From the NCBI GenBank assembly GCA_963787835.1, contig CAWBEI010000002.1, positions 1,376,001-1,440,000 on the forward strand: a stretch of DNA of 64,000 bases, in the 5' to 3' direction. Positions 5,443 to 56,705 of the stretch are shown one piece after another (within the stretch, counting starts at the first letter, position 1; each line of letters opens with the position of its first letter). Under the pieces are notes generated by a model. That model did not search any database, was not told the origin of the DNA, and saw only the letters and a program-made list of their open reading frames with translations. The translations under genes were made by a program, and so were the position numbers. Source of the stretch: Ignavibacteriota bacterium (lineage in GTDB: Bacteria > Bacteroidota > Ignavibacteria > Palsa-1295).

Positions 5443-5462
5443 TTCTCTCAGAAATAGGTGCC
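5443..5462 (+). repeat. 20-bp dispersed site, copy 1 (TTCTCTCAGAAATAGGTGCC)
   Basis: Ungapped match to 6494-6513, 35408-35427, 36437-36456 and reverse complement of 23060-23079. Confidence 0.8.
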
Positions 5463-5573
5463 TGTCAAACACAATTGAATTGTCATTTAATGAAGATTTT
5501 TTCGCTTTATGTCGATTGTTCATTAACTTCTTCGAGAAACGTAGTGTCGTTTTCATATACATAGTCCCTTCCC

Positions 5574-6383
5574 TCATACTGCCGGCCTCGAATTTTCATG
5601 CGTGATTCCCAGCCTGCGTTTTCGATCCCACTCGTTGCGTTCGTAGTCTGACATCACCTTCCACACCGCCGGGCAGTTCGCGGATAGTACCCCGATCGGG
5701 CCGCGCGCTTTGCGAAACGGGATCACGTCCGAGCGCATTTCCTGCGAGAACACGATGATCGAAAGCCCGTGCTTTTGCTGAAGTTCCAGCAGACCCTCCG
5801 CCAGCACCGACCGGTGCCAGTGGTTCAGCGCGCCGAACTCGAACGAGTTAACGATGAGTATCTGCGAGGGCGTGATCGCAAGTTCCGCTTCCATACGCCA
5901 CGAGGTACACGTTGAGACCGGGCAATCTAACACACGGACGTTCTTCATGCCTGGTGCGGCATCCTCCGCAAACCACGAGTCCTGCGGAGCATCCGGGCTC
6001 GGACCCGTATAGCCGGATGCATGACGAATAAACTCGGGCGACCCCGTAAAATAGCGACGGAACGCGGGCGGCATCGGAACATTGCACTCCCGCATACCAT
6101 ACGCAAGCGTGCGCTGCATCATGTCCGAGCCGGCGTAGGTATTGACGAGCATCACATTCCGCTCCGGATATTTCTTCGCAAGGAACACCGCCATCTCGCT
6201 TGCCATCTCTACCGAGGCGCGGACATCGCGGTTCAGCACCAGCGTAAAGCTTTCCGACATCGCCGGGATGTTCTCGCTCATGCCCACGAACGTAAACAAC
6301 GTCTCCCGCTCGCGCTCCGGCGGCATCGAAAACATCTCCTCCATATCGAACCCACGCACCTCTCTCAGTTTGATTGCTTCCAT
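5574..6383 (-). CDS. RecA/DnaB (AAA_25)-fold protein with degenerate Walker A, paralog 1
   Basis: Walker-B-like ILIVNS, GLSIIVFSQ and RGPIGVLS follow the RecA-fold order; P-loop replaced by TLVLNRDVRAS; clear paralog at 35540-36325. Confidence 0.6.
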   Translation of the reverse strand: MEAIKLREVRGFDMEEMFSMPPERERETLFTFVGMSENIPAMSESFTLVLNRDVRASVEMASEMAVFLAKKYPERNVMLVNTYAGSDMMQRTLAYGMRECNVPMPPAFRRYFTGSPEFIRHASGYTGPSPDAPQDSWFAEDAAPGMKNVRVLDCPVSTCTSWRMEAELAITPSQILIVNSFEFGALNHWHRSVLAEGLLELQQKHGLSIIVFSQEMRSDVIPFRKARGPIGVLSANCPAVWKVMSDYERNEWDRKRRLGITHENSRPAV

Positions 6384-6401
6384 AGTAATGTATTGTTATG
6401 T

Positions 6402-6493
6402 ATGTGTAAAAAATGGTGCTATTTATTGCACCCGAGCGCATAAAAGCACCATATAACTCAAATCGTTCGCACGAATATCAAAAATATCAAAAT
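6402..6493 (-). promoter_or_regulatory. conserved upstream/leader element with hairpin plus U-tract, copy 1
   Basis: Highly similar to 36345-36436; minus strand reads TGGTGCTTTTATGCGC-TCGG-GTGCAATAAATAGCACCA-TTTTTT. Confidence 0.75.
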
Positions 6494-6513
6494 TTCTTTA
6501 GGACATTGGTGCC
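6494..6513 (+). repeat. 20-bp dispersed site, copy 2 (TTCTTTAGGACATTGGTGCC)
   Basis: Direct repeat of 5443-5462, 1051 bp away. Confidence 0.8.
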
Positions 6514-6560
6514 TATGGCGAATTGCTGGAGATCTAGGTATTCTCCGTATTTTTGTATTC

Positions 6561-6869
6561 ATGGGACTCATAGATCATTATGACGGTTTCGACTGGGATG
6601 CAGGCAATGTTCGCAAAAACTGGGAGAGCCATCGTGTTTCTCGGGATGAGATCGAGCAGGTCTTTTCTAACCGTCCCTGGTATGATTATGAGGCTGAACG
6701 ATACGTTGGGACCGAAAAACGGAGGATCGTTCTTGGCAAAACCGATCAGGGCCGATCGTTGTTCATCGCTTACACGGAGCGAAACAATCGCGTGAGGCCG
6801 ATCTGCGCGCGCGACATGCACAAAACTGAACGAAAACGATTCGATGAAAAAGTTAAAAGCGATTCCTGA
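6561..6869 (+). CDS. brnT: BrnT-family toxin
   Basis: FDWDAGNVRKNWESH, EKRRIVLGKT and RVRPICAR are typical BrnT motifs. Confidence 0.85.
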   Translation: MGLIDHYDGFDWDAGNVRKNWESHRVSRDEIEQVFSNRPWYDYEAERYVGTEKRRIVLGKTDQGRSLFIAYTERNNRVRPICARDMHKTERKRFDEKVKSDS

Positions 6870-7119
6870 GTTCAAGACGGAAGACGAAGAATTTGAGTTC
6901 TGGTCATCGGTCGAGAATATATTCGATTACCTTGACGCGGATAAGTTCGTCCAAAAAGATCCTCCGATGGTCCCTAAAACGCTCAGCTTTAGCGCTCCCG
7001 CGGAAATGGAACTGGAAGTGAAACGGCTTTCAAAGGAACGAAAAGTAGATGTCCCGGAAATGGTCCGCCAGCTCGTCGCCGCGGGGCTGAAGCAGCAACG
7101 CATTCAGCCGGGAGCGTAA
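6844..7119 (+). CDS. BrnA/CopG-type antitoxin
   Basis: Overlaps brnT; IPEFKTEDEEFEFW N-terminus and RHH-like C-terminus. Confidence 0.8.
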   Translation: MKKLKAIPEFKTEDEEFEFWSSVENIFDYLDADKFVQKDPPMVPKTLSFSAPAEMELEVKRLSKERKVDVPEMVRQLVAAGLKQQRIQPGA

Positions 7120-7346
7120 AGAGTGCAGCAAATCACCGCACTAATGTTGCGGATGATAGGGACTATTCGAAGCTAATGGAATTTGTGAGGAGTTGAAGAG
7201 GGAAAAGCCCCAAGTGGGGGCGGTCACAAGCGCGGAACGGAAAACAGGCGAAGTCTGGTGGCAGGAATTAAAAGTGGTCATAAATCCCCTACATTAGTGT
7301 ACTTTCAAAAACGAGAGAAGAATCGTGCGCACCTGAAATAATCTTA

Positions 7347-8597
7347 TTATTGCTGCACTCCTATCGGCAAGAGGAAGTCAGAGTTGCCGAATTTATGCTT
7401 GAAAACATTCTTGGGAAAATAGGGTGATTGCGTTTGGTACCAACCGCTGTCAGTCGCTTGTGCTTGCATGATTGCTCTGTCACCTGTGCCTAAGAAAGGC
7501 ATTGTATCAATAAGCATTTTCCCCTCCGTTGGTGAAGACAAATATTCGAAGTCCTTATTAAAAGGTTCGTGTGTGAAATCTCGGTTTTGCAAAATGAGTT
7601 GGTGCTTGGCCATTGTTTTCCAGTTGATTTCCACACCAATACTATCAACATGTAGAGTCGGTTCATCGAGTAAAGGGAAAAGGAGTAGTTCGGAACCATT
7701 TAAGTCGTTAAGCCCGATTAATTTGCCCTGATCGAATGAATACTGAAAGTCGCTAAGATGCATAAGTACTGCGGCGTCATTCTTGAAAATTGTCGCAGTC
7801 CTAAATTCGACTTTTGCAGAAACATCAAAGAGTGTCTTAGTGCCTTTTATAAATCGGGCGCCCGCCCTCTTGCCCGTGAAATGGCTCCAAAGTTCTCGGC
7901 TCACAAAATTAGAAGAGTGGCTATTGTTTGGAAGCAGATTCAGCACCCAACCTGCCTCTGGACCCTCCTGTAAATGACCGATGACCCCATTAAAATTAGT
8001 ATCGATCGCTGAAAATATGTTATCTCTCAATTCGTTGCGTCTGTCATAAGCATTGACCGAATCGATGATTGTCATTAACCATAGGGTATTCTTTGGATAG
8101 AAGTTAAGTGTAATATCGATACCCAAACTGCGAATAGGATTAGCAATTCGCTCAGCTCCATTTAATACCGTGGAAATCAGTCCAAGTTGAACTTTAGTGC
8201 GCATTGTGGCTGTATCATCCTCCGTATGTAGAAAACGGAGTGAGTCAAGAGTGAGTCTCTGGTTCGAATCTATCACAACCTCTGATTCACGAAGAGATTC
8301 AGCATCTTTGAGTACGTTGGCTAAATAACCAATTGTTTGCCTCGATTTACTTTCCGCAACAGCCTCGGAATTTCTTTTGAGGTAGTCGCCAATTCCTTCG
8401 GCAAGAAGGCTTAAAAACAAGCCTATCAAAATATATGTTCGCACCCGCTTCCCCTGTCGTGTGAGTTTTCTTGACGTCTCATCGATTAACTGCGCCTTCT
8501 GCATTTGAGTGATCGCAACCAAGGCTGGCACAGCAATTGCGAGCAGCTTAATTGCTAAAAGCAAATAACCGATGATAATTGAAGTAGAATAGTTCAC
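7347..8597 (-). CDS. AT-rich hypothetical protein with two N-terminal TM helices (island cargo)
   Basis: 416-aa ORF, GTG start, lower GC than flanking genes, no recognised motif. Confidence 0.65.
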   Translation of the reverse strand: MNYSTSIIIGYLLLAIKLLAIAVPALVAITQMQKAQLIDETSRKLTRQGKRVRTYILIGLFLSLLAEGIGDYLKRNSEAVAESKSRQTIGYLANVLKDAESLRESEVVIDSNQRLTLDSLRFLHTEDDTATMRTKVQLGLISTVLNGAERIANPIRSLGIDITLNFYPKNTLWLMTIIDSVNAYDRRNELRDNIFSAIDTNFNGVIGHLQEGPEAGWVLNLLPNNSHSSNFVSRELWSHFTGKRAGARFIKGTKTLFDVSAKVEFRTATIFKNDAAVLMHLSDFQYSFDQGKLIGLNDLNGSELLLFPLLDEPTLHVDSIGVEINWKTMAKHQLILQNRDFTHEPFNKDFEYLSSPTEGKMLIDTMPFLGTGDRAIMQAQATDSGWYQTQSPYFPKNVFKHKFGNSDFLLPIGVQQ

Positions 8598-8674
8598 AAT
8601 AATTTCCCAAGCTCAGCGCCCATATTCCCAATCTCCTCATGCTTAGATGTAAATCGGCGAGTATAGAGTAATCC

Positions 8675-8756
8675 GCTAACACTCCCAGCACCTATTATCG
8701 GTTCCGTGCATTCCTAAATGGAGCTTGTTTATAAATCCTCCTGCAAGGGTGCCCGC
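8675..8756. repeat. 83-bp island-boundary element, copy 1
   Basis: About 68/83 identical by manual alignment to 39539-39621. Confidence 0.85.
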
Positions 8757-10296: not shown

Positions 10297-10299
10297 TTC

Positions 10300-10357
10300 G
10301 TAGCCGTGACCTTTAGGTCACGAGTGATTATGACCGTGACCTGAAGGTCACGGCTAC
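10300..10357. repeat. GTAG-type REP doublet (GTAGCCGTGACCTTTAGGTCACG...CGTGACCTGAAGGTCACGGCTAC)
   Basis: Inverted pair of palindromes; relatives at 54027-54118 and 63236-63252. Confidence 0.85.
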
Positions 10358-10364
10358 CACAACC

Positions 10365-11147
10365 ATGACACCTCTCACCGAACTCCGAGCCAACCACATA
10401 CGCGGCCTATTGCGCGATGCCCGCGCGCGCCGCGGCGATTCGGAATTCGTGCTCGAAGGCCCGCATTTGCTCGAAGCAGCGATGGAGAAAGCGCTCAAGT
10501 TGATCGAGTATGTTGCATTCACGCAGGATGCCATCGTTCGCCATCCCGATCTGTTGGATCAGGCGGAAAAGCTGGATATTCCCGTCTATTCGCTGTCTGC
10601 AAAGCTTGCAGCCCGCACTTCGGATACGCAGGAACCGCAGGGAATCTTTGCGGTCGCTCGGATGCCGCGGCCATCGCCGGTTCGCGGGAATGTTATCCTC
10701 GCGCTCGATGGTGTGAAAGATCCGGGAAATGCCGGCACCATTATCCGGACTGCGGCGTGGTTCGGCGTTCAGAATATCCTTCTTGCCGATGGATCGGCCG
10801 ATCCGTTCGCTCCCAAAGTAGTGCGCGGCACTCAAGGGGCGATCTTCGATGTAAGCCTCGAAACCAATGCCGATCTGATGAAACGCCTGACCGATCTGCG
10901 CAATACCGGTTGGACGATCCTTGCAGCATCGGTTTCCGAAACAGCAAAGCCCGTCTATGATATTAGCTTTCCGGAGCGCGTCGTATTCTTGTTCGGCACC
11001 GAAGCGCGTGGCATTCGCCCTGAATTGTTAACACTGGCTGCTGAAGAGATCGTGATCCCGAAACATGGTGCGGGCGAATCCCTGAACGTGGCGGTTAGTG
11101 CGGCGATCATTCTCGGCGAGTTTCGCCGCAGAAACCCAGCGACCTAA
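10365..11147 (+). CDS. TrmH/SpoU-family RNA methyltransferase
   Basis: LDGVKDPGNAGTIIRTA, FGTEARG and ESLNVAVS SPOUT motifs. Confidence 0.9.
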   Translation: MTPLTELRANHIRGLLRDARARRGDSEFVLEGPHLLEAAMEKALKLIEYVAFTQDAIVRHPDLLDQAEKLDIPVYSLSAKLAARTSDTQEPQGIFAVARMPRPSPVRGNVILALDGVKDPGNAGTIIRTAAWFGVQNILLADGSADPFAPKVVRGTQGAIFDVSLETNADLMKRLTDLRNTGWTILAASVSETAKPVYDISFPERVVFLFGTEARGIRPELLTLAAEEIVIPKHGAGESLNVAVSAAIILGEFRRRNPAT

Positions 11148-20369: not shown

Positions 20370-20587
20370 AGCCACGGAGTGGCGATGTACCCAATAGCCC
20401 AGGGTGTAGGCGAAGCCGGAACCCTGGGTCGTGATTAGATTTTGTATTCCCTAGCCCTGAAAGGGCGATGTTTGGCCGCCGGGATTTTACAACGCCCTTT
20501 CAGGGCTTGGGAATTATTGTGGCCTCGTTAACCCAGGGTTACGCTGCGCTGCACCCTGGGCTGCGGGTACTCCATCGCTCCGCGACT
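20370..20587. repeat. compound palindromic REP-like element (AGCCCTGAAAGGGCG / CCCAGGGT arms)
   Basis: Nested inverted repeats, including AGCCCTGAAAGGGCG...CGCCCTTTCAGGGCT. Confidence 0.8.
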
Positions 20588-21320
20588 AAGATGCTTCGAC
20601 GGGATTTGGCCGATATACCGTCAATTCGCTACATTCTTTGGTGAAGCAATCCATGACAAAAGCTTTTGAGAAGTGAGTTTCAAATGCTACATCGGGTGGG
20701 AAATTCAGAACGCTCTCCATCGGGGACCACCATAAGCCGCTATGATGTATCAGAAGCCAACACTCGTCACAATTTTGTATGTAGTCAGAATACTTCTGAT
20801 TTTTGTTGCTGATGATCTGCTTTATCGTCTCTACTTCGTCCTTCCAATATCTTCCGTGGAAACCATGCGTGCTTCCTACGAATGGTGTCAAACCTTCATA
20901 AATATTTATAGCATAGAAGTACTGATCTAGGCCGTATTTGTTCATCAGAACCCATTCGTTAAATTTATTCTGAGTTGGCCATCCTGCGTCAGATAGGTCG
21001 CCCACATAGTTCCCGATATTTTCGGCTACCTCATTGAACATGCTTCTCGGAATATTGCGTTGCCCGAATATAGGCGAAATTGTCACATGAAATTTCTGAG
21101 CGATAGGTTTCAATAGTTCACGAAGAACGGCTTCGTGACTTTCCTTCTCCCTTATCTCAGAGAGCATAAACTCGGTGAGCTCAATGCCGATTTTTTTCGA
21201 GCCGACTTCAAGAATGAAGTCAGGATGCTCACATTTGGTTGCTTCTTCACTTAGTCCGATTTGTTGCAGAAAAAGCTTGACAACGTCTCTTTCTTCCATC
21301 TGCTGGTTTTCTCGATTCAT
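20586..21320 (-). CDS. putative PD-(D/E)xK nuclease-like protein (island cargo)
   Basis: EHPDFIL...IGIELT motif; AT-rich. Confidence 0.55.
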   Translation of the reverse strand: MNRENQQMEERDVVKLFLQQIGLSEEATKCEHPDFILEVGSKKIGIELTEFMLSEIREKESHEAVLRELLKPIAQKFHVTISPIFGQRNIPRSMFNEVAENIGNYVGDLSDAGWPTQNKFNEWVLMNKYGLDQYFYAINIYEGLTPFVGSTHGFHGRYWKDEVETIKQIISNKNQKYSDYIQNCDECWLLIHHSGLWWSPMESVLNFPPDVAFETHFSKAFVMDCFTKECSELTVYRPNPVEAS

Positions 21321-21326
21321 TCCCCT

Positions 21327-21383
21327 CTCCACAATCTTAATTTCTTCTTCCGTTAAACCGTAAAGCTCATAAACTAATTTATC
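21327..21383 (-). pseudogene. remnant of a type IIG (Eco57I-like) restriction-modification enzyme C-terminus
   Basis: Encodes DKLVYELYGLTEEEIKIVE, the characteristic extreme C-terminus of these enzymes. Confidence 0.7.
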
Positions 21384-21408
21384 ACATGCAGCCGATTTCA
21401 ATACATCC

Positions 21409-22830
21409 TCACATTTGAAATACTCGTTTGCCTACGGTATAGACATACGTACTTGCCGGGGTAAACGTAAGGTTCACACCGTCTATCGTTTTGTAGTCTG
21501 ACTTATCGATCGTTGTTACCAGTGCGGAGTTGAGCCCGTTCAGAGTGCAGAACTTGAGCAAGGCGGTAAGCTGATGAGGGTTTTCAAAATAGCGGTTACT
21601 CCATTTTACTTCCACTGCCCAGTCGGGCTTCATAGTAGCGGCATTTACTCCGACCATATCCACTTCCCCCTTTTGCCATCTGGCATAATGAAGCTGCCGT
21701 TCCGGACGGTGTAACCATTGATCGAAGATCGCAGTCTCTACAAGATTCCCAAATGCGTCATCGTCGGACGTGACGGGTGAAAACAGCGCAGCACGCAGCG
21801 AGGTATTCGTGAGATAGACCTTAAACTGCTTTACTCGCTCGAAGCGCTTCGCCGTTTCGCTTATAGGCCGAACTCTCGTTATCAGGAATGCAGCCTCTAA
21901 GTATTCGATATATCGCTTTAGTGTTGCCTTTTCAACTCCTGATTTTTGACTGAGACTTTCGAGCGAAAGCTCGCGACCGGAGTTGAACGCAAGCATGGTA
22001 AAGAGTGCGTTTAATTCCTGCACGTCCCGTATTCCGTACAAACTTGGAAGATCTCTGAGGAGCACTTTGTCGATAATATCGTTCCTCACATAGCGAGCGG
22101 TGTCGGAAGCGATGGCCGCGCTCAACGTCACTTCCGGATAGCCTCCGAAGTTGACGTAATCGACGAAGTGTCTGTTCAGCTCCGCGATGTTATTTGTCTG
22201 ATAATAGCCTGTTCTGGATTTCCCATACTGTATTTTCGTTTCAAGAATGAGGTGGTTCAGGCCTTTTAGTTCCACGAACTCACTGAAGGTGAGTGGTGGT
22301 AAAATGAAATCTGTGAATCGGCCAGCACCGCTTTCGTTGCTCTTCATTCGAAGCGCTGCTGCCGCTGAACCAGAAGCGATGAAATGGGTTTCGGGATAAT
22401 CATCCACTAAGCGCTTTAGATGGACTTCCCATTCTTTCAGATACTGGATCTCATCGAAAAGGACATACCATCCCTTCGCATCGAGTTTACCGGTCGCTTT
22501 TCTCGAAAGTTTGAAGAGTTGATCGAGATCTTGTCCAAGGTAGATCGGGGTCTCGATCGAAAAGAATACGATCTTGAGCGGATCCACGCCGGAGTGAATG
22601 AGTCTTTGTATGGCATGGAATAGCATCACGGTCTTTCCAACCCTTCTCGGCCCCATCAGTACCAACGCCCGCCTTACGGATGGTTCGGCAAGGAGCCTCC
22701 AGAAAAGCTCCAGATAGGGCCGTGGATGCATATTTCCGTAAAAATCCTCGATTTTTAACGTTCTCCACCAAGGATTCTCAAATTGGAGTCTTTCCAGTAT
22801 TTGATCCTCAGAGTAATCTAAAAGTGCCAT
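21409..22830 (-). CDS. AAA_14 + DUF4143 ATP-binding protein
   Basis: NPWW, GPRRVGKT, DEIQY, SGS, GGYPE, GNLVE, EVD...EVKW. Confidence 0.9.
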   Translation of the reverse strand: MALLDYSEDQILERLQFENPWWRTLKIEDFYGNMHPRPYLELFWRLLAEPSVRRALVLMGPRRVGKTVMLFHAIQRLIHSGVDPLKIVFFSIETPIYLGQDLDQLFKLSRKATGKLDAKGWYVLFDEIQYLKEWEVHLKRLVDDYPETHFIASGSAAAALRMKSNESGAGRFTDFILPPLTFSEFVELKGLNHLILETKIQYGKSRTGYYQTNNIAELNRHFVDYVNFGGYPEVTLSAAIASDTARYVRNDIIDKVLLRDLPSLYGIRDVQELNALFTMLAFNSGRELSLESLSQKSGVEKATLKRYIEYLEAAFLITRVRPISETAKRFERVKQFKVYLTNTSLRAALFSPVTSDDDAFGNLVETAIFDQWLHRPERQLHYARWQKGEVDMVGVNAATMKPDWAVEVKWSNRYFENPHQLTALLKFCTLNGLNSALVTTIDKSDYKTIDGVNLTFTPASTYVYTVGKRVFQM

Positions 22831-23059
22831 AATGATATAAATAAGATAATTATACTACGCTTAAAAATGCTACTTAGTTCTATTTAAGTATTATTTGCTA
22901 AAAATTTTTTCCTTAAATGGAACCGAGAGGAATCGGGCAGGAGGGAGCATCGTAGGCGATGCGTCCGTCCTACAATGGTGTAGCAAATCTATGCGAAATG
23001 AAAATTTCGAATTTCGTGGCGGGTACGAAAAGTGTCGTATATTGGAGAGTGATATTAAG

Positions 23060-23079
23060 GGCACCAATGTCTGGGGGAA
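23060..23079 (-). repeat. 20-bp dispersed site, inverted copy (TTCCCCCAGACATTGGTGCC on minus strand)
   Basis: Matches the four plus-strand copies without gaps; GACATTGGTGCC identical to copy 2. Confidence 0.75.
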
Positions 23080-23310: not shown

Positions 23311-23342
23311 TGAACCAAAGTCCTCTAAAAATTGCTTACGAG
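23311..23342 (+). promoter_or_regulatory. conserved motif upstream of rplK (TGAACCAAAGT-N6-AAAATTGCTTNCGAG)
   Basis: 26/32 identical to the minus-strand motif upstream of rplY (35197-35228). Confidence 0.65.
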
Positions 23343-34400: not shown

Positions 34401-35069
34401 TCACTTCTTGTCGCTTTTTCCCTTTTCAGCAGGAGCTTCTTCCTCTTCCTTCTTACCCTTGGCCTTGATCTGCTCTGGTTCGGTGATCGCAGCTTCCGTT
34501 GCGGTCGTCGTTTCTTCAGCAGATTTCGGCGGAGCGATCGTCACGATAACGGAATGGGAATCGGTGGTGACCGTATAGTTCGGATTTACCGGAAGATCGC
34601 TCACATGTAGCGAGTGGTTGATCTTCAAATTGCTGACATCCAGATCGATATGCGAGGGGATCGAAGCCGGCAACACTTCGATCGAAAGCTTATGAAGCAC
34701 AAAATCGAGCACACCGCCATCTTTCACGCCGGGTGCGCTTCCAATGATCTTCACCGGTACATCGATGCGGATCTTCTCATCGGCATGAAGCAGGATGAGG
34801 TCGATATGGCTCACCCGGTCCGTCACGGGATGAAACTGCACCTCGCGGAGGACGCAGCTATTCGGTTTGCCATCGAGCACAAGGTTGACGGTATGCGTAT
34901 CCGGAGTGAAGATGAGCGGACGCAGATCCAGCTCTTTCACATGAAACGGAATGCTGGCCTCGCCGTGGCCATAAAGAATGCCTGGTACTCGGCCATTTTG
35001 CCGAAGCTGAAGTGCGGTCGAGCCGCCTAATTTGGTACGCGGTTCCGCGTTGATCGTTAATTGTGCCAT
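34401..35069 (-). CDS. rplY: 50S ribosomal protein L25/Ctc
   Basis: LRQNGRVPGILYG, EVQFHPV...HID, GVKDGG. Confidence 0.95.
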   Translation of the reverse strand: MAQLTINAEPRTKLGGSTALQLRQNGRVPGILYGHGEASIPFHVKELDLRPLIFTPDTHTVNLVLDGKPNSCVLREVQFHPVTDRVSHIDLILLHADEKIRIDVPVKIIGSAPGVKDGGVLDFVLHKLSIEVLPASIPSHIDLDVSNLKINHSLHVSDLPVNPNYTVTTDSHSVIVTIAPPKSAEETTTATEAAITEPEQIKAKGKKEEEEAPAEKGKSDKK

Positions 35070-35196: not shown

Positions 35197-35228
35197 CTCG
35201 AAAGCAATTTTAACCCTACTTTGGTTCA
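35197..35228 (-). promoter_or_regulatory. conserved motif upstream of rplY
   Basis: TGAACCAAAGTAGGGTTAAAATTGCTTTCGAG, matching 23311-23342. Confidence 0.65.
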
Positions 35229-35234
35229 CCACTC

Positions 35235-35395
35235 CCCATCCTTTCCTGAATCCTCTTAATCCTGCGAATCCTTGTCAAAATCCTCACCCCGTCCCCATCC
35301 TTCCCTAATCCTGAAAATCCTGAAAATCGTGGTCAATCCGGTGAATCGTGGTCCATTTTCCCCATCCCATAAATCCCAAAAATCTCATAAATCAT
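35235..35395. repeat. degenerate 9-mer tandem repeat array (AATCCnnnn)
   Basis: AATCCTGAA AATCCTGAA AATCGTGGT..., AATCCCAAA AATCTCATA. Confidence 0.75.
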
Positions 35396-35407
35396 GGTTC
35401 AGACTAT

Positions 35408-35427
35408 TTCCCTCGGAAACAGGTGCC
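35408..35427 (+). repeat. 20-bp dispersed site, copy 3 (TTCCCTCGGAAACAGGTGCC)
   Basis: 17/20 identical to 5443-5462; same position relative to the paralogous gene. Confidence 0.8.
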
Positions 35428-35539
35428 ATTTCTTTTTCTTGCGAGTTCCCGATGAACCCTCGTTTCCGAGCTGTTTTCGCCATTCGTTCTATATGAAAAT
35501 CAAAATCCATTTTCTCAAAGGACTGGTTCATAATGAAAG

Positions 35540-36325
35540 CTATAATAATTCGTTCATCTCTACCTCCATAAGCCTCTTGACCCACGACCGGTGTTCCCAA
35601 TCCTCCGTGATGTGCCAGATCGACCGTGCATACGCCGAGAGCATCCCAAGTGCTCCGCGGCCGCCGCTGTAAGGCAAGATCGGACGAAGCTCGTGCGAGA
35701 ACACAAATACCGATAATCCCAGGCGGTGCCTAAGGTCCAGCAGCGAACCCGCAAGCTGTTTTTTCTGAAGGTCGGAATACGCAGCGAACTCCAGCGAGTT
35801 CACCAGCACGATGCTCGCGTTATTTCGGACGATCTCCAGTTCCAGAGATTCCGGCGTCAGCGTCGAGCTCGGGCAATCGACGATGCTAAGGTTTTCCGGC
35901 GAGGGAAGATCGACGGAATCGTCGAAATGCTCTTTGGTAACCTTCGGAAGGTATCGCTCGAACGACGTCGGCGATTTCATGCCAAGGTAATAGAGTGCGC
36001 GCGCAAAACCTGCCGTCATAAGGTCCGCGCTGGCGTAGGTATTGAAGAGCACCACGTTCCGGTCCGGATATTTTTGTGCCAGGAACAGCGCGACCGTTCC
36101 CGCGATCTCCGCCGAACGCTGGATGGATCGGCCCAGCACCAGCGTAACCTCGCCCGAATAAGCGTGGTACTGCTGCATATCTCGGTTATATGTAATAAGC
36201 CGTTCCGGCTTATGCTCTGCCTTCGCGATCGCCGCTTCGAAAACTTGCATAAGCCGCAGCGGCAGTGGCCGATGACCAACAGTTGCTGCATCTGATCCGA
36301 TTGTGGTAGCTGGTTCGAGTATCAT
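35540..36325 (-). CDS. RecA/DnaB (AAA_25)-fold protein with degenerate Walker A, paralog 2
   Basis: Shares FLA.KYP.RNV, NTYA, DCP.ST, VNS.EF, GLS..VFS.E.R and RG..G.LSA with 5574-6383. Confidence 0.6.
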   Translation of the reverse strand: MILEPATTIGSDAATVGHRPLPLRLMQVFEAAIAKAEHKPERLITYNRDMQQYHAYSGEVTLVLGRSIQRSAEIAGTVALFLAQKYPDRNVVLFNTYASADLMTAGFARALYYLGMKSPTSFERYLPKVTKEHFDDSVDLPSPENLSIVDCPSSTLTPESLELEIVRNNASIVLVNSLEFAAYSDLQKKQLAGSLLDLRHRLGLSVFVFSHELRPILPYSGGRGALGMLSAYARSIWHITEDWEHRSWVKRLMEVEMNELL

Positions 36326-36344
36326 GGTGTTGTCCTATCTAAAA

Positions 36345-36436
36345 ATGTGTTAAAAAATAGTGCTTTTTACCGCACCTAGCACATAAAAGCACCATATAAC
36401 TCAAAACGTTCGCACAAATATCAAAAATATCAAAAT
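36345..36436 (-). promoter_or_regulatory. conserved upstream/leader element with hairpin plus U-tract, copy 2
   Basis: Minus strand TGGTGCTTTTATGTGC-TAG-GTGCGGTAAAAAGCACTA-TTTTTT; remainder near-identical to copy 1. Confidence 0.75.
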
Positions 36437-36456
36437 TTCTTTGGGAAATAGGTGCC
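36437..36456 (+). repeat. 20-bp dispersed site, copy 4 (TTCTTTGGGAAATAGGTGCC)
   Basis: Direct repeat of 35408-35427, 1029 bp away. Confidence 0.8.
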
Positions 36457-36515
36457 CATGGGGAAAATTGGGCAGGGACACAAACCATGCGACGGGAAGC
36501 ATACAAAAGCAGGCT

Positions 36516-37382
36516 TCAAACAACCACCGGTGAATTAAGAAGCTTCATCGATCGTGAATATTGCAATTTATCAGAAAAAATTAGCACTTCTTTACCAATC
36601 CTATTAGATGCACACTGAGACAGATTATGCGCAACTGTTTTGTATTCAGAATATAAGTTTAGGATAAATGGCTGATTGTCATAAGAGACGAGCCATCGTT
36701 TTTTGAGCTTTGACACATGCCTGGATAACGCTTTGTGGTCCTTTTCAGTATAGAAGTTCATATATAGATCTGCACCCTTGCAAAAATACGGAGGATCGAG
36801 GAAAATCAGAATTTGTTCATTCATCTTATCTAAGCGCCTCAAAAAATCAATACCATCATTATCCGAAAGCACGATTCGATCTTTAAGATTCGCAATTTTT
36901 TGGATGCGATGAATAAGGTCTTGTTTATTAAACCGTGCATCGATCTTGTAGCTCCCGTGCTGATCGAGGCCTCCAATAATTCCACCCTTAATAATTCCCG
37001 AAACGTTCGTGCGATTTAGAAAAAAAAATGCCTGTGCTACTTCGAATTCGGATGCGCTTTCATTGTAGATTAGCTCCTTGTAGTATTTCCATCGCTTCAC
37101 GTCAACTTTAACATTTTTAATCCATTTACAAAAATCATCCGGCTCGCTAAGGATGCTCTTCCAAAAAGAATGCACGGATCTGTCGATGTCGTTGAGATAA
37201 ATTTTTTCAACGTAACCCTCGAACAATAGCCTCAGAGCTAAACCAGAACCACCTGCGTATGGCTCAGCGTAGCTCAGGCCAATCAGATCGTTTTCATAAA
37301 ACAATTTAGCCACAAAAGGGAAAATGCATCCCTTCCCGCCCGGATATCGCAAAGGCGAATAAATATGCCTATTGTTTGCCAT
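36516..37382 (-). CDS. DNA adenine methyltransferase (Dam/D12 class)
   Basis: SPLRYPGGK, EPYAGG, FFLNRT, FLDPPY, SYD. Confidence 0.92.
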   Translation of the reverse strand: MANNRHIYSPLRYPGGKGCIFPFVAKLFYENDLIGLSYAEPYAGGSGLALRLLFEGYVEKIYLNDIDRSVHSFWKSILSEPDDFCKWIKNVKVDVKRWKYYKELIYNESASEFEVAQAFFFLNRTNVSGIIKGGIIGGLDQHGSYKIDARFNKQDLIHRIQKIANLKDRIVLSDNDGIDFLRRLDKMNEQILIFLDPPYFCKGADLYMNFYTEKDHKALSRHVSKLKKRWLVSYDNQPFILNLYSEYKTVAHNLSQCASNRIGKEVLIFSDKLQYSRSMKLLNSPVVV

Positions 37383-38618
37383 GACTTATCGTCAGCATTT
37401 CACCAAGGATGATCGAAATTGCAAGTGTTTGTTGAATGTTCCTAGATGTCGAGTAACTATGTGCTCCTATATGAAGTAAGCGCACCAAACTCGAATCACT
37501 AACAATTTGAGTGGATAAAAATGTCCTATCTTCTTTGGATAATTCAGATTTTCCTTCACTGAAATACTTTTTTACATAGGCATCGATTCCTTCGCTACCG
37601 GCCGCTACTTCAGAGAGTAGCCGAAGCGACATTCTAATTAGGCCAGGAAATGCTGGTGAGAAATTCTTCTTTGGGGCATTTATGTCAGCTTCATAGTAAC
37701 TGTATAATTTTGTGATATCACAATATAAATCGTTGATATCGCCGTACTTCAATTGCAATTTTTTACCAAAGAAAATACGGCCGCTTTCTTTTGTTCGTTT
37801 CGTTAGTCGTAAACTGGCTTTCATTTGCTCATCTTTTTTTTGTTTGAAAAATAGATTAGCAAGTTTTGGTTTTTTACTTTTATTTTCTTCAATAATTCTT
37901 TTTGATTCCGGTTCTAAGACAGCTAAAATATCACCTCTCTTTTCTCTTGTCGAAATCTCCTCATCTTCAATTTTCTTTGAAAGATCACTGAGTATAGTCT
38001 TCGCTTGGAGGCTATTATGTACTGTAAGCAGCTTATCTCCCTCAACGCTGAATCCAATCTTGGCCAGGTTCTCCTTTTAAATATTTCGTCTTTGACGAAT
38101 CCTTTATTAAGGTGTTTATTAGCGCCAATTAAGCCCGTACTCTCCTCAATTAAAAGAAAAGGGCTTTTGGGATGACCCATGAATTTATGAAGGAACATAT
38201 CGCGCTCTAAGGGATCCCAAGAGCCCGTTCCAGCATGTTTACGATAAACATTCTCCAATGCAATTTCTTTGACGCAAACATTGCATGGAATATCTGCGGG
38301 AAAAAAGTCAGGAATGAGTCCTGGATTAAAACCGCTCGCTTTTACTAAACCATGCTTAATTTTTCCTAAAATAACACGTCGGTTGCCGTCATAGACAATC
38401 GGCTTTCCGGTGTGATAGACAACTGTTGGCAATTCGCTGAAATCGTAGCGCTTTCCCATAGCGCGTGCGAGCTTAGAGATGTTCCACTTCGTTGCCTCTG
38501 CTCCCAAAGCTCTGTCCACGATATCTTGGTCACTTGCGTTGACATCAATCGGGTCACGCGGATTTTCAGTCCACAGAACCAAATCTTTGATTTTTATTGA
38601 TTTTACTTCTTGATCCAT
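37369..38618 (-). pseudogene. ParB/Srx-like N-domain plus helical (HEPN-like) C-domain protein, split by a 1-base frameshift near 38077
   Basis: ENPR and VYDGNRR motifs; adding one A at TTTAAAAGG joins the 38618 ORF to an open frame running into 37824-37369 (SLRLL, RLLHIGAH). Confidence 0.7.
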
Positions 38619-38687
38619 AATCGTTTGGGTTTTTCAGCCAATAATAATTTTCCTCGCCATTATCTTCAAGCACATAAGAACAACAAA

Positions 38688-39455
38688 TTAGATGTCATTC
38701 TCGATTTGTTCGTAAGTTAGTATCCTGCTTGAAAGAAGAGCCATCTCGTCCGGATGATAACCAAACATTAGCATCTTTTTGTCTCTAATAAATTTGATGA
38801 GTTTCTTCACATCATCATCATCTTCAACTATTAGGTACCTTACGTCATCTGGGTCGTAGCCCAACTTAAATTTACTTGGAATCATTTTATTATACTTCTC
38901 TTTCCAATCACCTTCAATTATTTTCGAACTGAGATGCGACAACTGATAAAGTGAGTCTGGGAACTCTGGGACATATCTCCATTCTCTTTCATCGGCGAAT
39001 AGGTAATTATTTTGAATTAATTTCCCTTTACGCATCAACTTGCCCTGATAATGTTTTAAAAAAGACTGAAGCCGAAAGAACTTTTTGTATTCTTCATAAT
39101 CGTCCATATTAGTACTAAGGTTCGTTCTGAAAGAATGTGTCTCAAGACCGTCGAGGTAATCAGGAATTAACCTATTCTTCTCATTAATGTAAAAAACGGG
39201 GTGCAATCCTTTTTCTGTGGCCCAACTTTTTCTTAATCCAATCCCATAATGACCATAGTTATCCATGTGCTTTTCTAGCTCTGAAACTCTGAGATCACAA
39301 AATGAAACCATCGGCACAGCAAACTCATTGTCATTCCTGCCCGATCTCCTAATTGTTTCCTTAGCATAAGACGGTTTGAACCCCTCTGTCAAAATTTTCT
39401 TCAGGCTCCCAAATTTGCGTGTAAAGTGAAATACGATGCTGGGGTAGAGTGCCAT
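38688..39455 (-). CDS. AbiGi-family abortive-infection protein
   Basis: FHFT, VPMVSFCDL, H...YG.YGIGL.K.W, EREWRY motifs. Confidence 0.85.
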   Translation of the reverse strand: MALYPSIVFHFTRKFGSLKKILTEGFKPSYAKETIRRSGRNDNEFAVPMVSFCDLRVSELEKHMDNYGHYGIGLRKSWATEKGLHPVFYINEKNRLIPDYLDGLETHSFRTNLSTNMDDYEEYKKFFRLQSFLKHYQGKLMRKGKLIQNNYLFADEREWRYVPEFPDSLYQLSHLSSKIIEGDWKEKYNKMIPSKFKLGYDPDDVRYLIVEDDDDVKKLIKFIRDKKMLMFGYHPDEMALLSSRILTYEQIENDI

Positions 39456-39538
39456 TTTCTGGTAACTTTATTTTGTATTAGTCTTCGAATCACAGCTACA
39501 GGGTGTCGAAACCTTATGGGGTATTGCTTCGAAATTCT

Positions 39539-39621
39539 GCTAACACCCTGTGCACCTATTGTGGGTTCCGTGCAACCCTAAATGGCGCTTGTTTATGAAT
39601 CCTCCTGCTGTGGCCGCCCGC
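39539..39621. repeat. 83-bp island-boundary element, copy 2
   Basis: About 82% identical to 8675-8756 by manual alignment. Confidence 0.85.
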
Positions 39622-39628
39622 GTTTCTT

Positions 39629-39849
39629 AGCTCCGTAGGAGCGTAATATTTGTAGCCCCCGGTTTCAACCGGGGGTTAAGAAACGCAAATCGAATTAAAG
39701 CTCCGTAGAGCCTGTCCTGAGCCTGTCGAAGGAAGCGGCATATTTTTCATCAGAGCATATTTCGCTCCTAACGGAGCTTGATATGCGTTGTTGTCACCAT
39801 ACCGTGGGTTGAAACCCACGGCTACAAATATTACGCTCCTAACGGAGCT
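39629..39849. repeat. compound REP-like element (AGCTCCGTAGGAGCG arms) containing the 24-bp micro-element at 39708-39731
   Basis: Terminal IRs AGCTCCGT(T)AGGAGCGTAATATTTGTAGCC plus internal hairpins. Confidence 0.85.
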
Positions 39850-39932
39850 TCCATCCAAGGTAGCTAAAATCGGTTCAAAATCGTCATTTCTTTAAATTCC
39901 TATAAAATTATGGTCAAAAAGCAGTGACCAGG

Positions 39933-39968: not shown

Positions 39969-40685
39969 ATGCACAGAGCTTCAAGGATAGGTTATGGCGT
40001 TTCCGAGGTTGGCAGAGCGAAAAGCGTTCCTGCCGCCGGTTCGCCGTTGCCCGGTGCATACTCAGATGAAGCGCCTCTCTCGGCGAATTCAAAATCGGAT
40101 CCGGATGAGGTCAAGAAGCAGGCATTCCTTGCAGGAAGCGATGAGGCGTTCCTCGAACTGTATGCAAAGTACGAGCACTCGCTATTCTACTACTGCAAGC
40201 GCATGATGCATAACGAGGCCGCCGCTGAGGATGCATTTCAGGAGATCTGGACTCGTATCTTCGAGCTTCGCAAGAAGAAGAATGGTACGATCACGCATTT
40301 CCGCGGCTTGCTTTTTCATAGCGCCCGGAATCTCTGCCTGAACAACCTGCACACCGAACTCCACGAGGATAGCATCGAGGATAAAATGTTCGAAGGTGAG
40401 GAACAGGCGGAGTTCGTGCTCACGGAGCCAATGACCCGCGCAGCCTCCGGCCGCGAGATCCAGGCGCTGATGGTGCGGGCGCTCGCAAAGCTGCCGTTCG
40501 ATCAGCGCGAGACGTTCGTGCTGCATGAGTATTCCGGCTTCACCTTCGGCGAGATCGCAGAAATGATGTCGGTACCGGAAGCGAATGTGAAGGTTCGCGC
40601 ACATCGCGCACGCGCACGTTTACGAAAGTTTATTCAAGGTTGGCTCGGCCTCGGTGAGGACGACGATCCGTCAAATTATATTTAG
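39969..40685 (+). CDS. ECF RNA polymerase sigma factor
   Basis: AEDAFQEIW, ARNLCLN, ALAKLP..QRE.F, EIAE, VKVRAHRAR. Confidence 0.92.
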   Translation: MHRASRIGYGVSEVGRAKSVPAAGSPLPGAYSDEAPLSANSKSDPDEVKKQAFLAGSDEAFLELYAKYEHSLFYYCKRMMHNEAAAEDAFQEIWTRIFELRKKKNGTITHFRGLLFHSARNLCLNNLHTELHEDSIEDKMFEGEEQAEFVLTEPMTRAASGREIQALMVRALAKLPFDQRETFVLHEYSGFTFGEIAEMMSVPEANVKVRAHRARARLRKFIQGWLGLGEDDDPSNYI

Positions 40686-54118: not shown

Positions 54119-54123
54119 AAAAC

Positions 54124-54158
54124 AAAAGAGCCCTTCTCTTACGAGAAGGTTTTTTTTT
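54124..54158. terminator. intrinsic terminator-like hairpin downstream of T9SS gene
   Basis: CCTTCTC-TTAC-GAGAAGG with flanking A/T runs; duplicate of 56654-56685. Confidence 0.6.
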
Positions 54159-54175
54159 GAAAAACCAGGGATGGA

Positions 54176-56539
54176 TTATTTTAGAATGACCATCTGTCGC
54201 GTAAGCGTTACACCGCCTGCGGTCATTTGGTAATAATAGGTACCGCTTGCAAGGCCATCAGCCTTGAGGGTTACGCCGAAGGTACCGGCATCGAAATGCT
54301 GATTGAGCACGGTCTGAACAACCTGGCCATCCACATTAATGATGCTCAAGTTAACCATTCCGCCGACCGGAAGCGTGATCTCCACCTGGCTCGAAGCACC
54401 GAACGGATTCGGGTAATTCTGATCGAGGCTGTAACCGTTGGACTCTGCAACAATCGGCACACTTGCCGTCGTCGCATTACCGGTGAGCACTACATTTGCA
54501 GCCGGAAGCGAAGTTCCAATTGCGGTTGGGAATTGAACCGTTTGCGTCGCCGTGGCTGCAGAGGTTGGACTAAATGTGAACATCAGTTCTGCGCTGTCTC
54601 CAGCAGCGATCGTTGTGTCACCGCTGACGTAGGTGAATGGCGGTGTGACCACTGGCGTACCCGTTGCCCAATCACACGTTCCGGTGTTCTTGACCTTTGC
54701 GGCAAATGGCGCGGAGGTAGATCCAACAGTTGTGAGTTGGGAACTTCCGTTTCCAGCGATCTTGGGTGCGCCGCCAGAGGGATCAAGCCAAATGCCACCT
54801 GATATTATCCCATCGTCCCTGTTCATAGTCAAGAGCTGTGTCTCTTCAATACCGACTTTTGTAGGAATGAATCGAATGCCAAAAGAATATGTCCCGCCTG
54901 GCGGAACCGTGGGTGACGTGGTCGGAGTAACAAATTTAAAATCGGCAGAATCGCGCTGGGCGAGCGAGGCTGAATAAACATCAGACACGTTCCCAACATT
55001 GTTTACATAGACGATGCCAAGACTCGAATCACCTAGACATGTCACCGGTGAAAATCCTGTTTCGAGATCAATATAATAGCTGATTAACGTCCCATAGACG
55101 GAGAGCTTATGCAGAGCGACTCCTTCAACGCCGCTACCATAGTTCGCAGTCACGTCTAAGAATCCTGTGTACAGTCCCGTATCCCCAGGATCTGCGCAGA
55201 CAGTAATAATCCTACTTGAATCTGGTTCAAGAACGAACGGTACCGAAGGGTATTTAGGAATGCTAAATGCCGACGTGAGCCCGTTAGTACCTACAAGAAT
55301 GTATGTGATCGTAATAGGACCCTGACCTACATTCCGAATGGTGTCGGTCAGACAGGATTCAGTGCCTACAGGAACGGAGTCATACGATGTTGGCCCAGTG
55401 ACTTCCAGCGCACCCGTTACTGAATCGCCTATTCCCACAATATCGACCACGAATGAACTCGTATCTTTTGGCGGAGTGGTCTCGGTCAGCGGGATGTCTG
55501 TGAGGATACGTAAGGTGGCAACGCGGGTGCCGGCCTTGATGGGAGTAAAGCACACCTGGATATTCGCGGTGCCACCCGGCGGGATCAATGTGTCCCTGCT
55601 GGTAAGCGGCGTAAATGTAAAATCGCGGTCCGCATCCTCGAAATAATTCTTCGTGATCGCCACCGTATCCGAGCCGGGATTCCAAAGCTGGAACTGCAAA
55701 CAGGAGCTTGCCCCAAGTCCAATGGAATCGAAATTCAGCGTCAAAGGAAGCGGATAGGTTTTACCGCTATCGATCGACAAATGTGGAAGGATTCCCACAC
55801 CCTCCATGATGATGGTGTCGGAGGGTATATTCACGGCGTTGCTGGAGATCACAATTCGAGCGTCGGGAATGCCTTCGAAATCAGGAGTGAATCTCACGCC
55901 GATCGAATCCTTATCCCCCGCCGGAATGGTGCCAGCGGGCATACGCGTGATAAAGCACGCGCGCGAGCCATCCCGCCCGATAATACTGACCCCTGTGATC
56001 GCAAGCGGCCCAACGCCTGTCGAGTTGACGTACAAATATTGCACATTCGAAGTATCGGTAACCCTCACTTTGGTGCCGGCAAACATTGTGGATGCGCTAT
56101 AGGAAACGGAAGGAATCGCACTGATGCCGGTTAGACTTGTGGCCTGCGTTCCTGAATCCACACCGGTCGTCGTGACGGTCAGCGTACCAGTTTCCGTTCC
56201 ATAAGCAAAAGGAAGAAATTGAATGCCGATCAACTCGTAGTTCCCGGCCGGAATGCTGTCTCCCACTTGTGCGCCGCTAATTTGCGAATAATAGATGGAT
56301 CCGGTAAAGGCAATGTTAGTGATGCCAAGCTTCGTCCCGGCCGCGCCGACGTTCTTGATGGTGTCATAAAGCGTATCGGGTGAATTCGATGTGGCTGTCC
56401 CGAAATTTAGGAGCTTGGGGTTCGGCGCGAGTGAAAGCTCGGCAGATTGAGCGTGTGCGCTCGTTGAAACCAAGAGAGCAACACATAGCACCATCATCAG
56501 ATGGATACCTGTGACCAATGATCTATTCAGGGTTTTCAT
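54176..56539 (-). CDS. T9SS surface protein with Ig-like (choice-of-anchor D/ASH) repeats, paralog B
   Basis: Signal peptide, LNFG/F.P repeats, LDQNYPNPF...LASGTYYY. Confidence 0.85.
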   Translation of the reverse strand: MKTLNRSLVTGIHLMMVLCVALLVSTSAHAQSAELSLAPNPKLLNFGTATSNSPDTLYDTIKNVGAAGTKLGITNIAFTGSIYYSQISGAQVGDSIPAGNYELIGIQFLPFAYGTETGTLTVTTTGVDSGTQATSLTGISAIPSVSYSASTMFAGTKVRVTDTSNVQYLYVNSTGVGPLAITGVSIIGRDGSRACFITRMPAGTIPAGDKDSIGVRFTPDFEGIPDARIVISSNAVNIPSDTIIMEGVGILPHLSIDSGKTYPLPLTLNFDSIGLGASSCLQFQLWNPGSDTVAITKNYFEDADRDFTFTPLTSRDTLIPPGGTANIQVCFTPIKAGTRVATLRILTDIPLTETTPPKDTSSFVVDIVGIGDSVTGALEVTGPTSYDSVPVGTESCLTDTIRNVGQGPITITYILVGTNGLTSAFSIPKYPSVPFVLEPDSSRIITVCADPGDTGLYTGFLDVTANYGSGVEGVALHKLSVYGTLISYYIDLETGFSPVTCLGDSSLGIVYVNNVGNVSDVYSASLAQRDSADFKFVTPTTSPTVPPGGTYSFGIRFIPTKVGIEETQLLTMNRDDGIISGGIWLDPSGGAPKIAGNGSSQLTTVGSTSAPFAAKVKNTGTCDWATGTPVVTPPFTYVSGDTTIAAGDSAELMFTFSPTSAATATQTVQFPTAIGTSLPAANVVLTGNATTASVPIVAESNGYSLDQNYPNPFGASSQVEITLPVGGMVNLSIINVDGQVVQTVLNQHFDAGTFGVTLKADGLASGTYYYQMTAGGVTLTRQMVILK

Positions 56540-56653
56540 ATCAATCTCCTAAAAAATATTGAACATTTGAAAGGACGAAACACAGACGAACGTCGATATT
56601 ACAGGGAAATGGAACCCAAAAATAAGTGGTCAGGTTCGCTGAAAAATTTCAAT

Positions 56654-56685
56654 AAAAAAGCCCTTCTCTTTCGAGAAGGGCTTTT
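56654..56685 (-). terminator. intrinsic terminator
   Basis: AAAAGCCCTTCTC-TTTC-GAGAAGGGCTTTT, with U-run on the minus strand. Confidence 0.8.
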
Positions 56686-56705
56686 CTTGAAAAACCAGGA
56701 ATGGG

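Follow-up and report, generated by a model that had tools for sequence, protein, structure and literature searches.

The locus between rplY and an extracytoplasmic function (ECF) sigma factor gene in an Ignavibacteriota bacterium raises the question of whether its three AT-rich genes form an island with a scaffold of its own or fill one of many comparable places in the genome, and how such a place is refilled. The locus (positions 35,408 to 39,621) belongs to a stretch of 64,000 nucleotides, the window (positions 1,376,001 to 1,440,000 of contig CAWBEI010000002.1, assembly GCA_963787835.1). The original prediction described it as the second copy of a seven-part island, copy 1 lying at 5443-8756, and regarded both copies as a conserved platform with exchangeable defence cargo. 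The comparisons made here used this genome (G000, 3.57 Mb, with contig C2 among its contigs), related genomes (G002, G006, G009, G014 and others) and contigs of sequencing runs, among them a peat run (X5) that includes a contig ~94% alike to this genome. They indicate that the locus is one case of a larger family of modules, and that these modules are the fixed edge of slots whose genes differ between relatives. The parts of copy 2 and its surroundings are as follows.

34401..35069, minus strand: rplY (ribosomal L25/TL5), left core flank (Pfam PF01386, PF14693; the ECF gene is its neighbour in G006)
35230..35407: low-complexity, heptamer-type repeats before the module, missing from the empty locus (seen in the sequence; G006 homology stops near 35229; indels in X5)
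35408..35427, plus strand: site 1, left edge of the type-A module (BLAST, pattern and profile; other copies match from 35406)
35428..35539: type-A body (the trailer), 112 bp, a non-coding repeat scattered over the genome (55 hits of its profile)
35540..36325, minus strand: pseudo-ATPase, 261 aa, RecA/DnaB/KaiC-type fold with decayed Walker A and B motifs (model and alignment; no Pfam match)
36326..36436, minus strand: leader, 111 bp, a diverged P (lexA-type promoter) module (sequence comparison)
36356..36379: full predicted LexA box with a GTGC-N8-GCAC core (profile, 12.6 bits)
36373-36396: weaker second predicted box in the leader (profile, 2.0 bits)
36437..36456, plus strand: site 2 (G), a half box that bounds the cargo on the left (full-box score -0.8 bits)
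36516..37382, minus strand: adenine methylase, PD-Lambda-5 B-like (PADLOC PD-Lambda-5_B, 1e-108; Pfam PF02086)
37369..38618, minus strand: PD-Lambda-5 A-like gene, split by a frameshift (PADLOC PD-Lambda-5_A, 4e-7, N-terminal part only)
38688..39455, minus strand: AbiGi-like gene (Pfam PF10899, 4e-27; PADLOC AbiGi, 8e-50)
~39536..39621, plus strand: 83-bp element (E), an inverted half box with a conserved tail (sequence; copies elsewhere)
39629..39845: inverted repeat of the repetitive extragenic palindrome (REP) or miniature inverted-repeat transposable element (MITE) type, Acido-Lenti-1-like, behind E (Rfam RF01687, 36.7 bits, cut-off 37)
39969..40685, plus strand: ECF sigma factor, core flank on the right side (from near 39860 the sequence is again homologous to the empty locus)

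All seven predicted scaffold parts (site, trailer, pseudo-ATPase, leader, second site, cargo and 83-bp element) were found where they had been placed, and the description of the cargo as co-oriented, AT-rich and unrelated to that of copy 1 was borne out: the three genes lie on the minus strand, have a GC content of 0.35–0.45 (~0.52 in the flanks) and show no match to the copy 1 cargo. Site 1 contains one predicted LexA half box (35419-35427) and scores 0.2 bits as a full box. The A-like gene and the methylase B gene are adjacent and co-oriented, in PD-Lambda-5 order, A being a weak match and its gene being split into two open frames of 231 and 235 codons; an X1 contig has a one-base gap within 37993-38277, inside this gene, and the frameshift may be an assembly error. 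The inverted arms of the repeat behind E occupy 39636-39670 and 39807-39841. Copy 1 has the following composition.

5443..8756, plus strand: copy 1, a type-B module with a pseudo-ATPase paralog, boxes at 6412 and 6430 (10.0 and 9.7 bits), site G, BrnT/BrnA, a 416-aa gene and E

The two copies share 91 nt of leader and site at 90% and 73 nt of the right element at 85%; their pseudo-ATPases are 33% identical, and the site-to-site distance is 1051 in copy 1 and 1029 in copy 2. The trailers do differ in sequence, as had been noted, being of type B in copy 1 and of type A in copy 2, whereas their supposed equality in length holds to 1 bp and not exactly (trailer 111 bp and leader 110 bp in copy 1, 112 and 111 bp in copy 2).

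Genome-wide searches clearly indicate that the trailers are two types of genome-wide repeat and are not island-specific. Profiles gave 55 type-A, 21 type-B and 82 P hits in the whole genome, a BLAST search listed 54 homologs of the trailer, and the site pattern occurred 71 times on C2 compared to 15 times in shuffles. Type A or B is followed by P within ~90–300 bp in 69 clusters, and A or B stands at the head of 71 modules; the pseudo-ATPase gene lies between the body and a diverged P in both island copies, and 69 modules in this genome have no such gene. The P motif is present in 31/34 genomes of the taxonomic family, with 1–53 exact matches each, and in 0/26 genomes of other families, the reversed control giving zero everywhere. 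The organism itself is Kapabacteria-like, judging by the labels of homologous proteins and of records that contain the motif. For type A, 38–40 copies are listed in each of G000, G002 and G006; it also occurs in G009 and G014, and a further 10 genomes of the genus yielded no copy. The type-A body has no conserved frame, a folding z of about -0.5 and no consensus fold (86 copies), and matched no Rfam family; a structured RNA and a small open reading frame (ORF) were ruled out by these fold, frame and Rfam tests. Other body types stand behind the same P in more distant genomes (L254–L257 in G003, L261–L267 in G009); some of them are tandem modules, with a half box separating the bodies and the cargo again on the far side.

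The DNA on the two sides of a module behaves differently. For 40 modules of relatives (20 of the 38 listed in G006 and 20 of the 40 listed in G002, best BLAST hits), 89% of the left flanks was covered by this genome, with 38/40 covered over more than half, and 17% of the right flanks, with 3/40 covered over more than half; 16/17 of the right-flank hits fell within the cargo zones of this genome, which comprise 9% of its DNA. Mean GC content drops from 0.516 in the 500 bp preceding the modules to 0.459 between +1 and +1.5 kb, and is 0.506 again at +4.5 kb. When 20 of the 40 modules were extended to 20 kb, the cover by non-cargo DNA was 0.02, 0.01 and 0.06 in kb 2–4 and 0.66–0.82 in kb 6–7, and synteny came back at the same locus in 15/20 slots after 2.8–6.3 kb (median 4.6). 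In the other 5/20 cases synteny breaks at the module and restarts elsewhere, as ectopic recombination would give, and it does likewise behind lexA. Where a locus is occupied in both genomes, cargo is shared at the same locus in 1/10; cargo matched to another locus was found for 6/20 slots.

The cargo was surveyed in 80 proteins (63 of the 86 ORFs of the 20 slots and 17 from L031, L069 and the window). It comprises restriction-modification systems, Shedu, a Schlafen helicase, toxin-antitoxin pairs, secreted beta-propellers, enzymes and many unnamed proteins; PADLOC found PD-T4-10 in L069 of G002, Y1 HUH transposases occur in 2/20 slots, and no tyrosine or serine recombinase was found among the 80 proteins scanned. 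The predicted exchangeable defence cargo is thus exchangeable and not solely defensive, since secreted beta-propeller proteins and enzymes are common. Repeats make up 13–20% of the cargo zones up to 3 kb and 1–7% of the left flanks, and one REP-type family is present in 32/71 cargo zones. The right ends of the slots are ragged, with no common motif in the eight cases inspected. A search for a universal right-end motif was unsuccessful; a related short family behind a half box was seen in a few slots only. This second short family, akin to E (a half box, then GGTTCC/GTTCC), was observed at C5:200760, C2:534340, L134:2960, L135:4830 and L149:943; the copy at C5:200760 lies 3.2 kb behind a module, where G006 synteny restarts.

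Element E marks the far end of some slots. Three copies are present in this genome (3/71 slots), four in G006 L031 and three in G002 L069; those in L031 and L069 separate unrelated cargo blocks, always in the orientation of the platform. The first E lies 2.2–3.6 kb from the platform (17 copies collected).

Empty and refilled alleles were found at both island loci. The predicted rplY-ECF adjacency in relatives was confirmed in G006, where the two genes lie ~350 bp apart; homology to the window stops near 35229 and restarts near 39860, and the empty locus contains no GGTGCC site. In G002, a rearrangement separates the two genes, where no module was detected, and toxin-antitoxin genes and repeats lie at both rplY/ECF breakpoints (L089, L090). 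An X5 contig covers 35504-36428 and 39543-39674, with 3593 other letters replacing 3114; a copy-1-like site 2 is retained and the cargo between site 2 and E is replaced; its assignment to this locus is inferred from neighbouring contigs tiling the rplY and ECF sides, not from one contig. At the copy 1 locus, the 1001-bp module of B body and ATPase is replaced in an X5 contig by 280 letters, with site 2 and other cargo behind them. In G002, a short gene-less A-P module is followed there by site 2 and by other cargo with three E elements. The X5 and G002 alleles indicate that cargo and ATPase module are separately exchangeable. A conserved platform with exchangeable cargo is therefore upheld by the empty locus of G006, the X5 swap and the other cargo at copy 1 in X5 and G002; the scaffold as a single seven-part unit is not, given the gene-less forms at the copy 1 locus and the 69 modules without the ATPase gene. 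The anticipated ~1.03-kb circles were not seen: no joint was found in four runs per locus, a search of contigs only, which cannot show absence.

The P part of the modules is related to the promoter of lexA. A GGTGC/GCACC half site lies upstream of 29/30 lexA and 21/30 recA genes of the family (4/30 and 0/30, respectively, in the in-gene control), and the alignment of 46 lexA and recA promoter sites, all from other genomes, yielded a palindrome, GGTGC-N8-GCACC, located immediately behind a -10 element of the TATATT type. The right half of this box was required by the training pattern; the left half, which was not selected for, is 63–93% conserved per position. With the profile built from these sites, 57/71 modules score at least 10 bits (1.3% of random windows) and 17/20 pseudo-ATPase homologs at least 9 bits (1.9% of random windows). 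Genome-wide, a cut-off of 14 bits gave 41 boxes compared to 21 and 19 in shuffles, the only cut-off at which the shuffles were exceeded. The lexA gene of this genome (DNA-binding and S24 domains) lies directly under a B-P module, and P is also found at recQ/ruvA, a radical SAM gene and a Y-family polymerase gene. As far as sequence comparison can tell, the full box is very probably a LexA operator. The 20-bp sites appear to be LexA half boxes and not attachment sites; they are half of the palindrome, sites 1, 2 and E scoring near zero as full boxes. A promoter scan of the copy 2 leader called no consensus sigma-70 promoter. GGTGC-N8-GCACC presumably resembles the Fibrobacter box, for which no paper was found to check it. 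It is likely a new candidate LexA box for a lineage in which the searches made found none; the literature search found no description of the module family or of a Kapabacteria SOS box, subscription journals and supplements (with possible lists of LexA motifs) being largely outside its coverage.

The pseudo-ATPase was modelled from 34 aligned sequences (predicted local distance difference test score 89.7). Its structural matches to DnaB, T7 gp4, KaiC and RadA are tied (Z-score 13.5–13.7, root-mean-square deviation 3.6–5.6, 179–196 residues). Across the 34 sequences, the loop that follows strand 60-65, in the place of Walker A, has LGRSIQRS / LNRDIRKS and the Walker B position has NS[FL]E, unlike the GxxxxGK[ST] and acidic Walker B of active RecA/DnaB ATPases. 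The protein family is small (59 clusters at 50% identity) and was met in no other taxonomic family than this one (17/24 genomes), with 2–7 paralogs per genome and three real ones in this genome. That other paralogs would lack the flanking parts, which the original prediction named as its refutation, proved true in part: among 20 loci of relatives, site 2 was present at six, E at one and an adjacent trailer at one. The pseudo-ATPase is read as an optional passenger of some modules and not as a mobilising enzyme; it would best be seen as a DNA-damage-induced, catalytically dead regulator of RecA fold. SulA and ImuA are SOS-controlled RecA-fold proteins without working ATPase motifs, and we take the likeness to them to be one of concept: the best neighbours of the pseudo-ATPase are of DnaB/KaiC/RadA type, it has no Pfam match, and SulA and ImuA are not among the structural matches listed, which does not exclude them. 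Longer pseudo-ATPases, in open frames of ~390–495 aa with a large insertion between the fold halves and the box present, were observed in L047–L050 and L046 (G010, G004, G009, G005, G006). The closest homolog, in G006 L031 (6079-9500), directly adjoins a CRISPR array with cas1/cas2; next come four cargo blocks, each closed by E, that contain a short-chain dehydrogenase/reductase (SDR) and an F420 oxidoreductase, HicA/B and DUF1801-OmdA.

How the slots are refilled can be answered only conditionally. It is plausible, if still short of probable, that refilling proceeds by homologous recombination anchored on the module and on cargo-side repeats. The module, related to the lexA promoter-leader and carrying the putative LexA operator, would be one anchor of RecA-type recombination; the second would be either a shared repeat (E or a REP-type hairpin) or the core flank at the far end. 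Foreign DNA taken up by the cell would provide the incoming fragments, whose size would limit slot length; comEC and recA are present in the genome. The polarity would arise because repeats are several times denser on the cargo side, second anchors being common on that side only. Such a route would explain why cargo is shared across loci, why right ends are ragged, why breakpoints fall at modules and why the pattern is one-sided.

A number of observations speak against this explanation, some of them touching its LexA component and others the recombination itself. The recQ/ruvA site in this genome scores only 4.2 bits, the box profile at 10 bits gives 140 hits genome-wide compared to 128 and 152 in shuffles, its right half was fixed by the selection of the training pattern, and canonical -35 hexamers are present in only 26/60 P modules. 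Repair genes account for 1/26 annotated genes flanking 40 modules, the other neighbours being mostly housekeeping genes, so most boxes have no evident SOS target; a role of the modules as SOS promoters of their neighbours was rejected for this reason. Variation behind the recA and lexA promoters is no greater than downstream, and the idea that cargo piles up behind every real SOS promoter was likewise dropped, since recA is variable on either side and 5/8 genomes conserve the DNA behind lexA. As to recombination, module copies are only ~70–90% alike over 130–250 bp, which makes them a weak RecA substrate; A and B bodies swap just after the common half box at orthologous loci; 10/20 loci have no profile-detected A/B module in this genome (one has the degenerate third module of the window), and the empty sites inspected carry no GGTGCC. 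The swap of A and B bodies and the orientation of E, downstream of the platform and in the same direction in 15/17 copies (14 by the nearest module plus the third E of L069), fit site-specific exchange equally well. The first arrival of a module at an empty locus is not accounted for.

Several of these points suit an integron-like explanation, which is possible and rather unlikely: a recombinase in trans (XerC/XerD or the single phage-type integrase on C4) would use the half-box sites (A/B, G, E) for crossover or as arm sites, a LexA-controlled promoter, frequent though not required in integrons, would face away from the cassettes, E would correspond to attC and cassettes would be added at G. 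The layout is that of the SOS-controlled integron, as far as the text of PMC3108266 presents it; E stands between unrelated cargo blocks in platform orientation (four copies in L031, three in L069), X5 retains G and E and swaps the sequence between them, body types change just after the half box, and a half box parts tandem bodies. Set against this, E is present in 3/71 slots only and no inverted site is enriched at slot ends; none of eight E copies has the R-box pair (R''/R') of attC and no hairpin is consistent among them (z +1.0 to -4.8), by which E is ruled out as attC. The genome encodes three PF00589 tyrosine recombinases (XerC, XerD and one phage-type integrase on C4) and one split resolvase, none of them next to a module in the regions inspected. 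At the modules, no dif-like site was found that has both arms, the best match anywhere in the genome to a dif consensus (28 bp, XerC and XerD arms around a 6-bp spacer) has three mismatches, and the P spacer varies from 9 to 11 bp, unlike the rigid dif core; the dif-consensus search gave no support to the sites as dif/Xer cores. The contigs, as mentioned, contained no circle joints.

The fixed left edge, ragged right edge and narrow length range would also be expected if a nicking enzyme or a packaging machine started at the A/B end and carried ~3–5 kb in the manner of rolling-circle elements or small transducing particles, with the module as a non-autonomous origin. This would explain new insertions at empty loci, and the Y1 HUH transposases in 2/20 slots accord with it, but it is improbable: there was no Terminase_6N match and no Y2 transposase match (the control was silent here, so absence is not shown), and the cargo is a mosaic that is not colinear with a single donor locus. 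The A and E patterns and the pseudo-ATPase were not found in viral contigs; two P-pattern matches there lie inside RNA-virus-like coding sequence and were discarded as chance, leaving no autonomous or phage-borne form of the module in these contigs. To a similar degree, it seems improbable that no exchange system exists and that the modules are promoter-bearing miniature repeats, behind which the DNA tolerates insertions of small elements, with deletion limiting the size. Cargo zones rich in REP-type repeats, toxin-antitoxin pairs and gene fragments, and right ends with no common motif, agree with such a passive sink; the replacement of whole cargo by cargo of similar length with G and E kept (3114 vs 3593 bp), the strict one-sidedness (38/40 vs 3/40 flanks) and the sharing of same-locus cargo in 1/10 only do not. 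Recombination between homologous anchors remains the reading adopted here, at the strength given above.

The window contains one further module, and some other features of it and of the assembly were recorded.

22997..23072, minus strand: third module, P with a full box at 23045-23068 and a degenerate body

It adjoins rplK-rplA and has its cargo on the left (20586-22830; an AAA_14-DUF4143 gene and a 271-aa gene); in G006, the same locus holds an A-P module with other cargo, an Eco57I-like system. A third pseudo-ATPase paralog lies at C2 ~9700-10470, with the promoter, a site-2-like sequence and a BrnT/BrnA pair and with no trailer site; its right side is truncated by an assembly fold-back. The region C2:1-15200 is a mirror image of ~7.5 kb per side that duplicates typA, the pseudo-ATPase and BrnT/BrnA, and the paired paralogs at the start of C2 were accordingly taken as one mirrored locus, not two. 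At 5245-5442 of the window, a 65-aa ORF runs right up to the copy 1 site; it resembles the N-terminus of gyrase/topoisomerase IV subunit A and is conserved in G002 (72 aa). A 32-nt element is common to 23311-23342 and 35197-35228 (81%), upstream of the rplK and rplY operons, and is kept in G006 and G002; it is likely a native promoter or leader motif. Two large paralogous genes share a 300-nt stretch alike at 85% (54121-54420 and 56651-56950).

Dispersed non-coding repeats with gene-less and gene-bearing forms are known from REP/REPIN-RAYT systems and MITEs; unlike these, the modules are not hairpins, they carry a promoter and a putative operator, and their gene-bearing form has no transposase. 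The slots, as a kind, resemble the hotspots of horizontal gene transfer free of mobile genetic elements that are presented in the text of Oliveira et al. (2017, PMC5635113) as places of rapid turnover between core genes, defence-rich and many without integrase, for which double homologous recombination, more frequent in transformable species, is proposed as the driver; here, too, turnover is high between conserved core flanks and no integrase was found in the slots examined. In that account, the anchors are the core genes of the locus itself, whereas here a shared dispersed module forms one edge of ~70 slots, the slots keep within a narrow size range, and cargo travels from locus to locus. The defence islands described in PMC10121019 usually do come with an integrase, and pipolins are the subject of PMC11551731. 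The SOS integrons treated by Cambray et al. (2011, PMC3108266), in the sections that bear on this, have a LexA-controlled promoter facing away from an exchangeable array, as the modules here would (predicted boxes in 57/71), toxin-antitoxin and defence cassettes and, as in some of the present loci, repeated spacers between cargo blocks; the differences are the lack of intI and attC, ~70 platforms instead of one or few, and a dead RecA-fold gene or no gene in the position of intI. The LexA regulons of Balneolaeota (PMC7739468) and Bacteroidetes (PMC8565304), from the text searched, share with the present case a canonical LexA (DNA-binding and S24 domains) and a motif before lexA, recA, a Y-family polymerase gene and a radical SAM gene; the searched text of both papers does not mention Kapabacteria or Ignavibacteria. 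Balneolaeota LexA is described in the former as binding a direct repeat, whereas the motif here is a palindrome confined to one family (31/34 genomes, 0/26 outside).

For the biology of this family, the observation means that the island is one member of a module family that edges hotspots of an already known kind, and there is a low, though not negligible, chance that the modules constitute a new exchange system. How integrase-free turnover hotspots arise and refill is an open question in the text of PMC5635113, and the hotspots described here have a visible, shared and oriented anchor, a narrow size and swap alleles in near relatives; with such alleles and a shared anchor, homologous and site-specific exchange become decidable from the breakpoints. 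Defence genes could moreover be sought in the slots, of which each genome offers ~70; those met so far are PD-Lambda-5, PD-T4-10, Shedu, restriction systems and many unnamed ones; by-products are the candidate LexA box for the lineage and a family of dead RecA-fold proteins in its predicted regulon. It is doubtful, yet worth stating, that the ~70 integrase-free lexA-promoter platforms might form a distributed exchange switched by the SOS response, in which a host enzyme would act in trans and exchange DNA at the LexA half-sites. If this were true, DNA damage would open all slots together and shuffle ~8–9% of the genome from a shared pool of 3–5 kb defence and surface cargo, and the dead DnaB-like protein would be an accessory factor.

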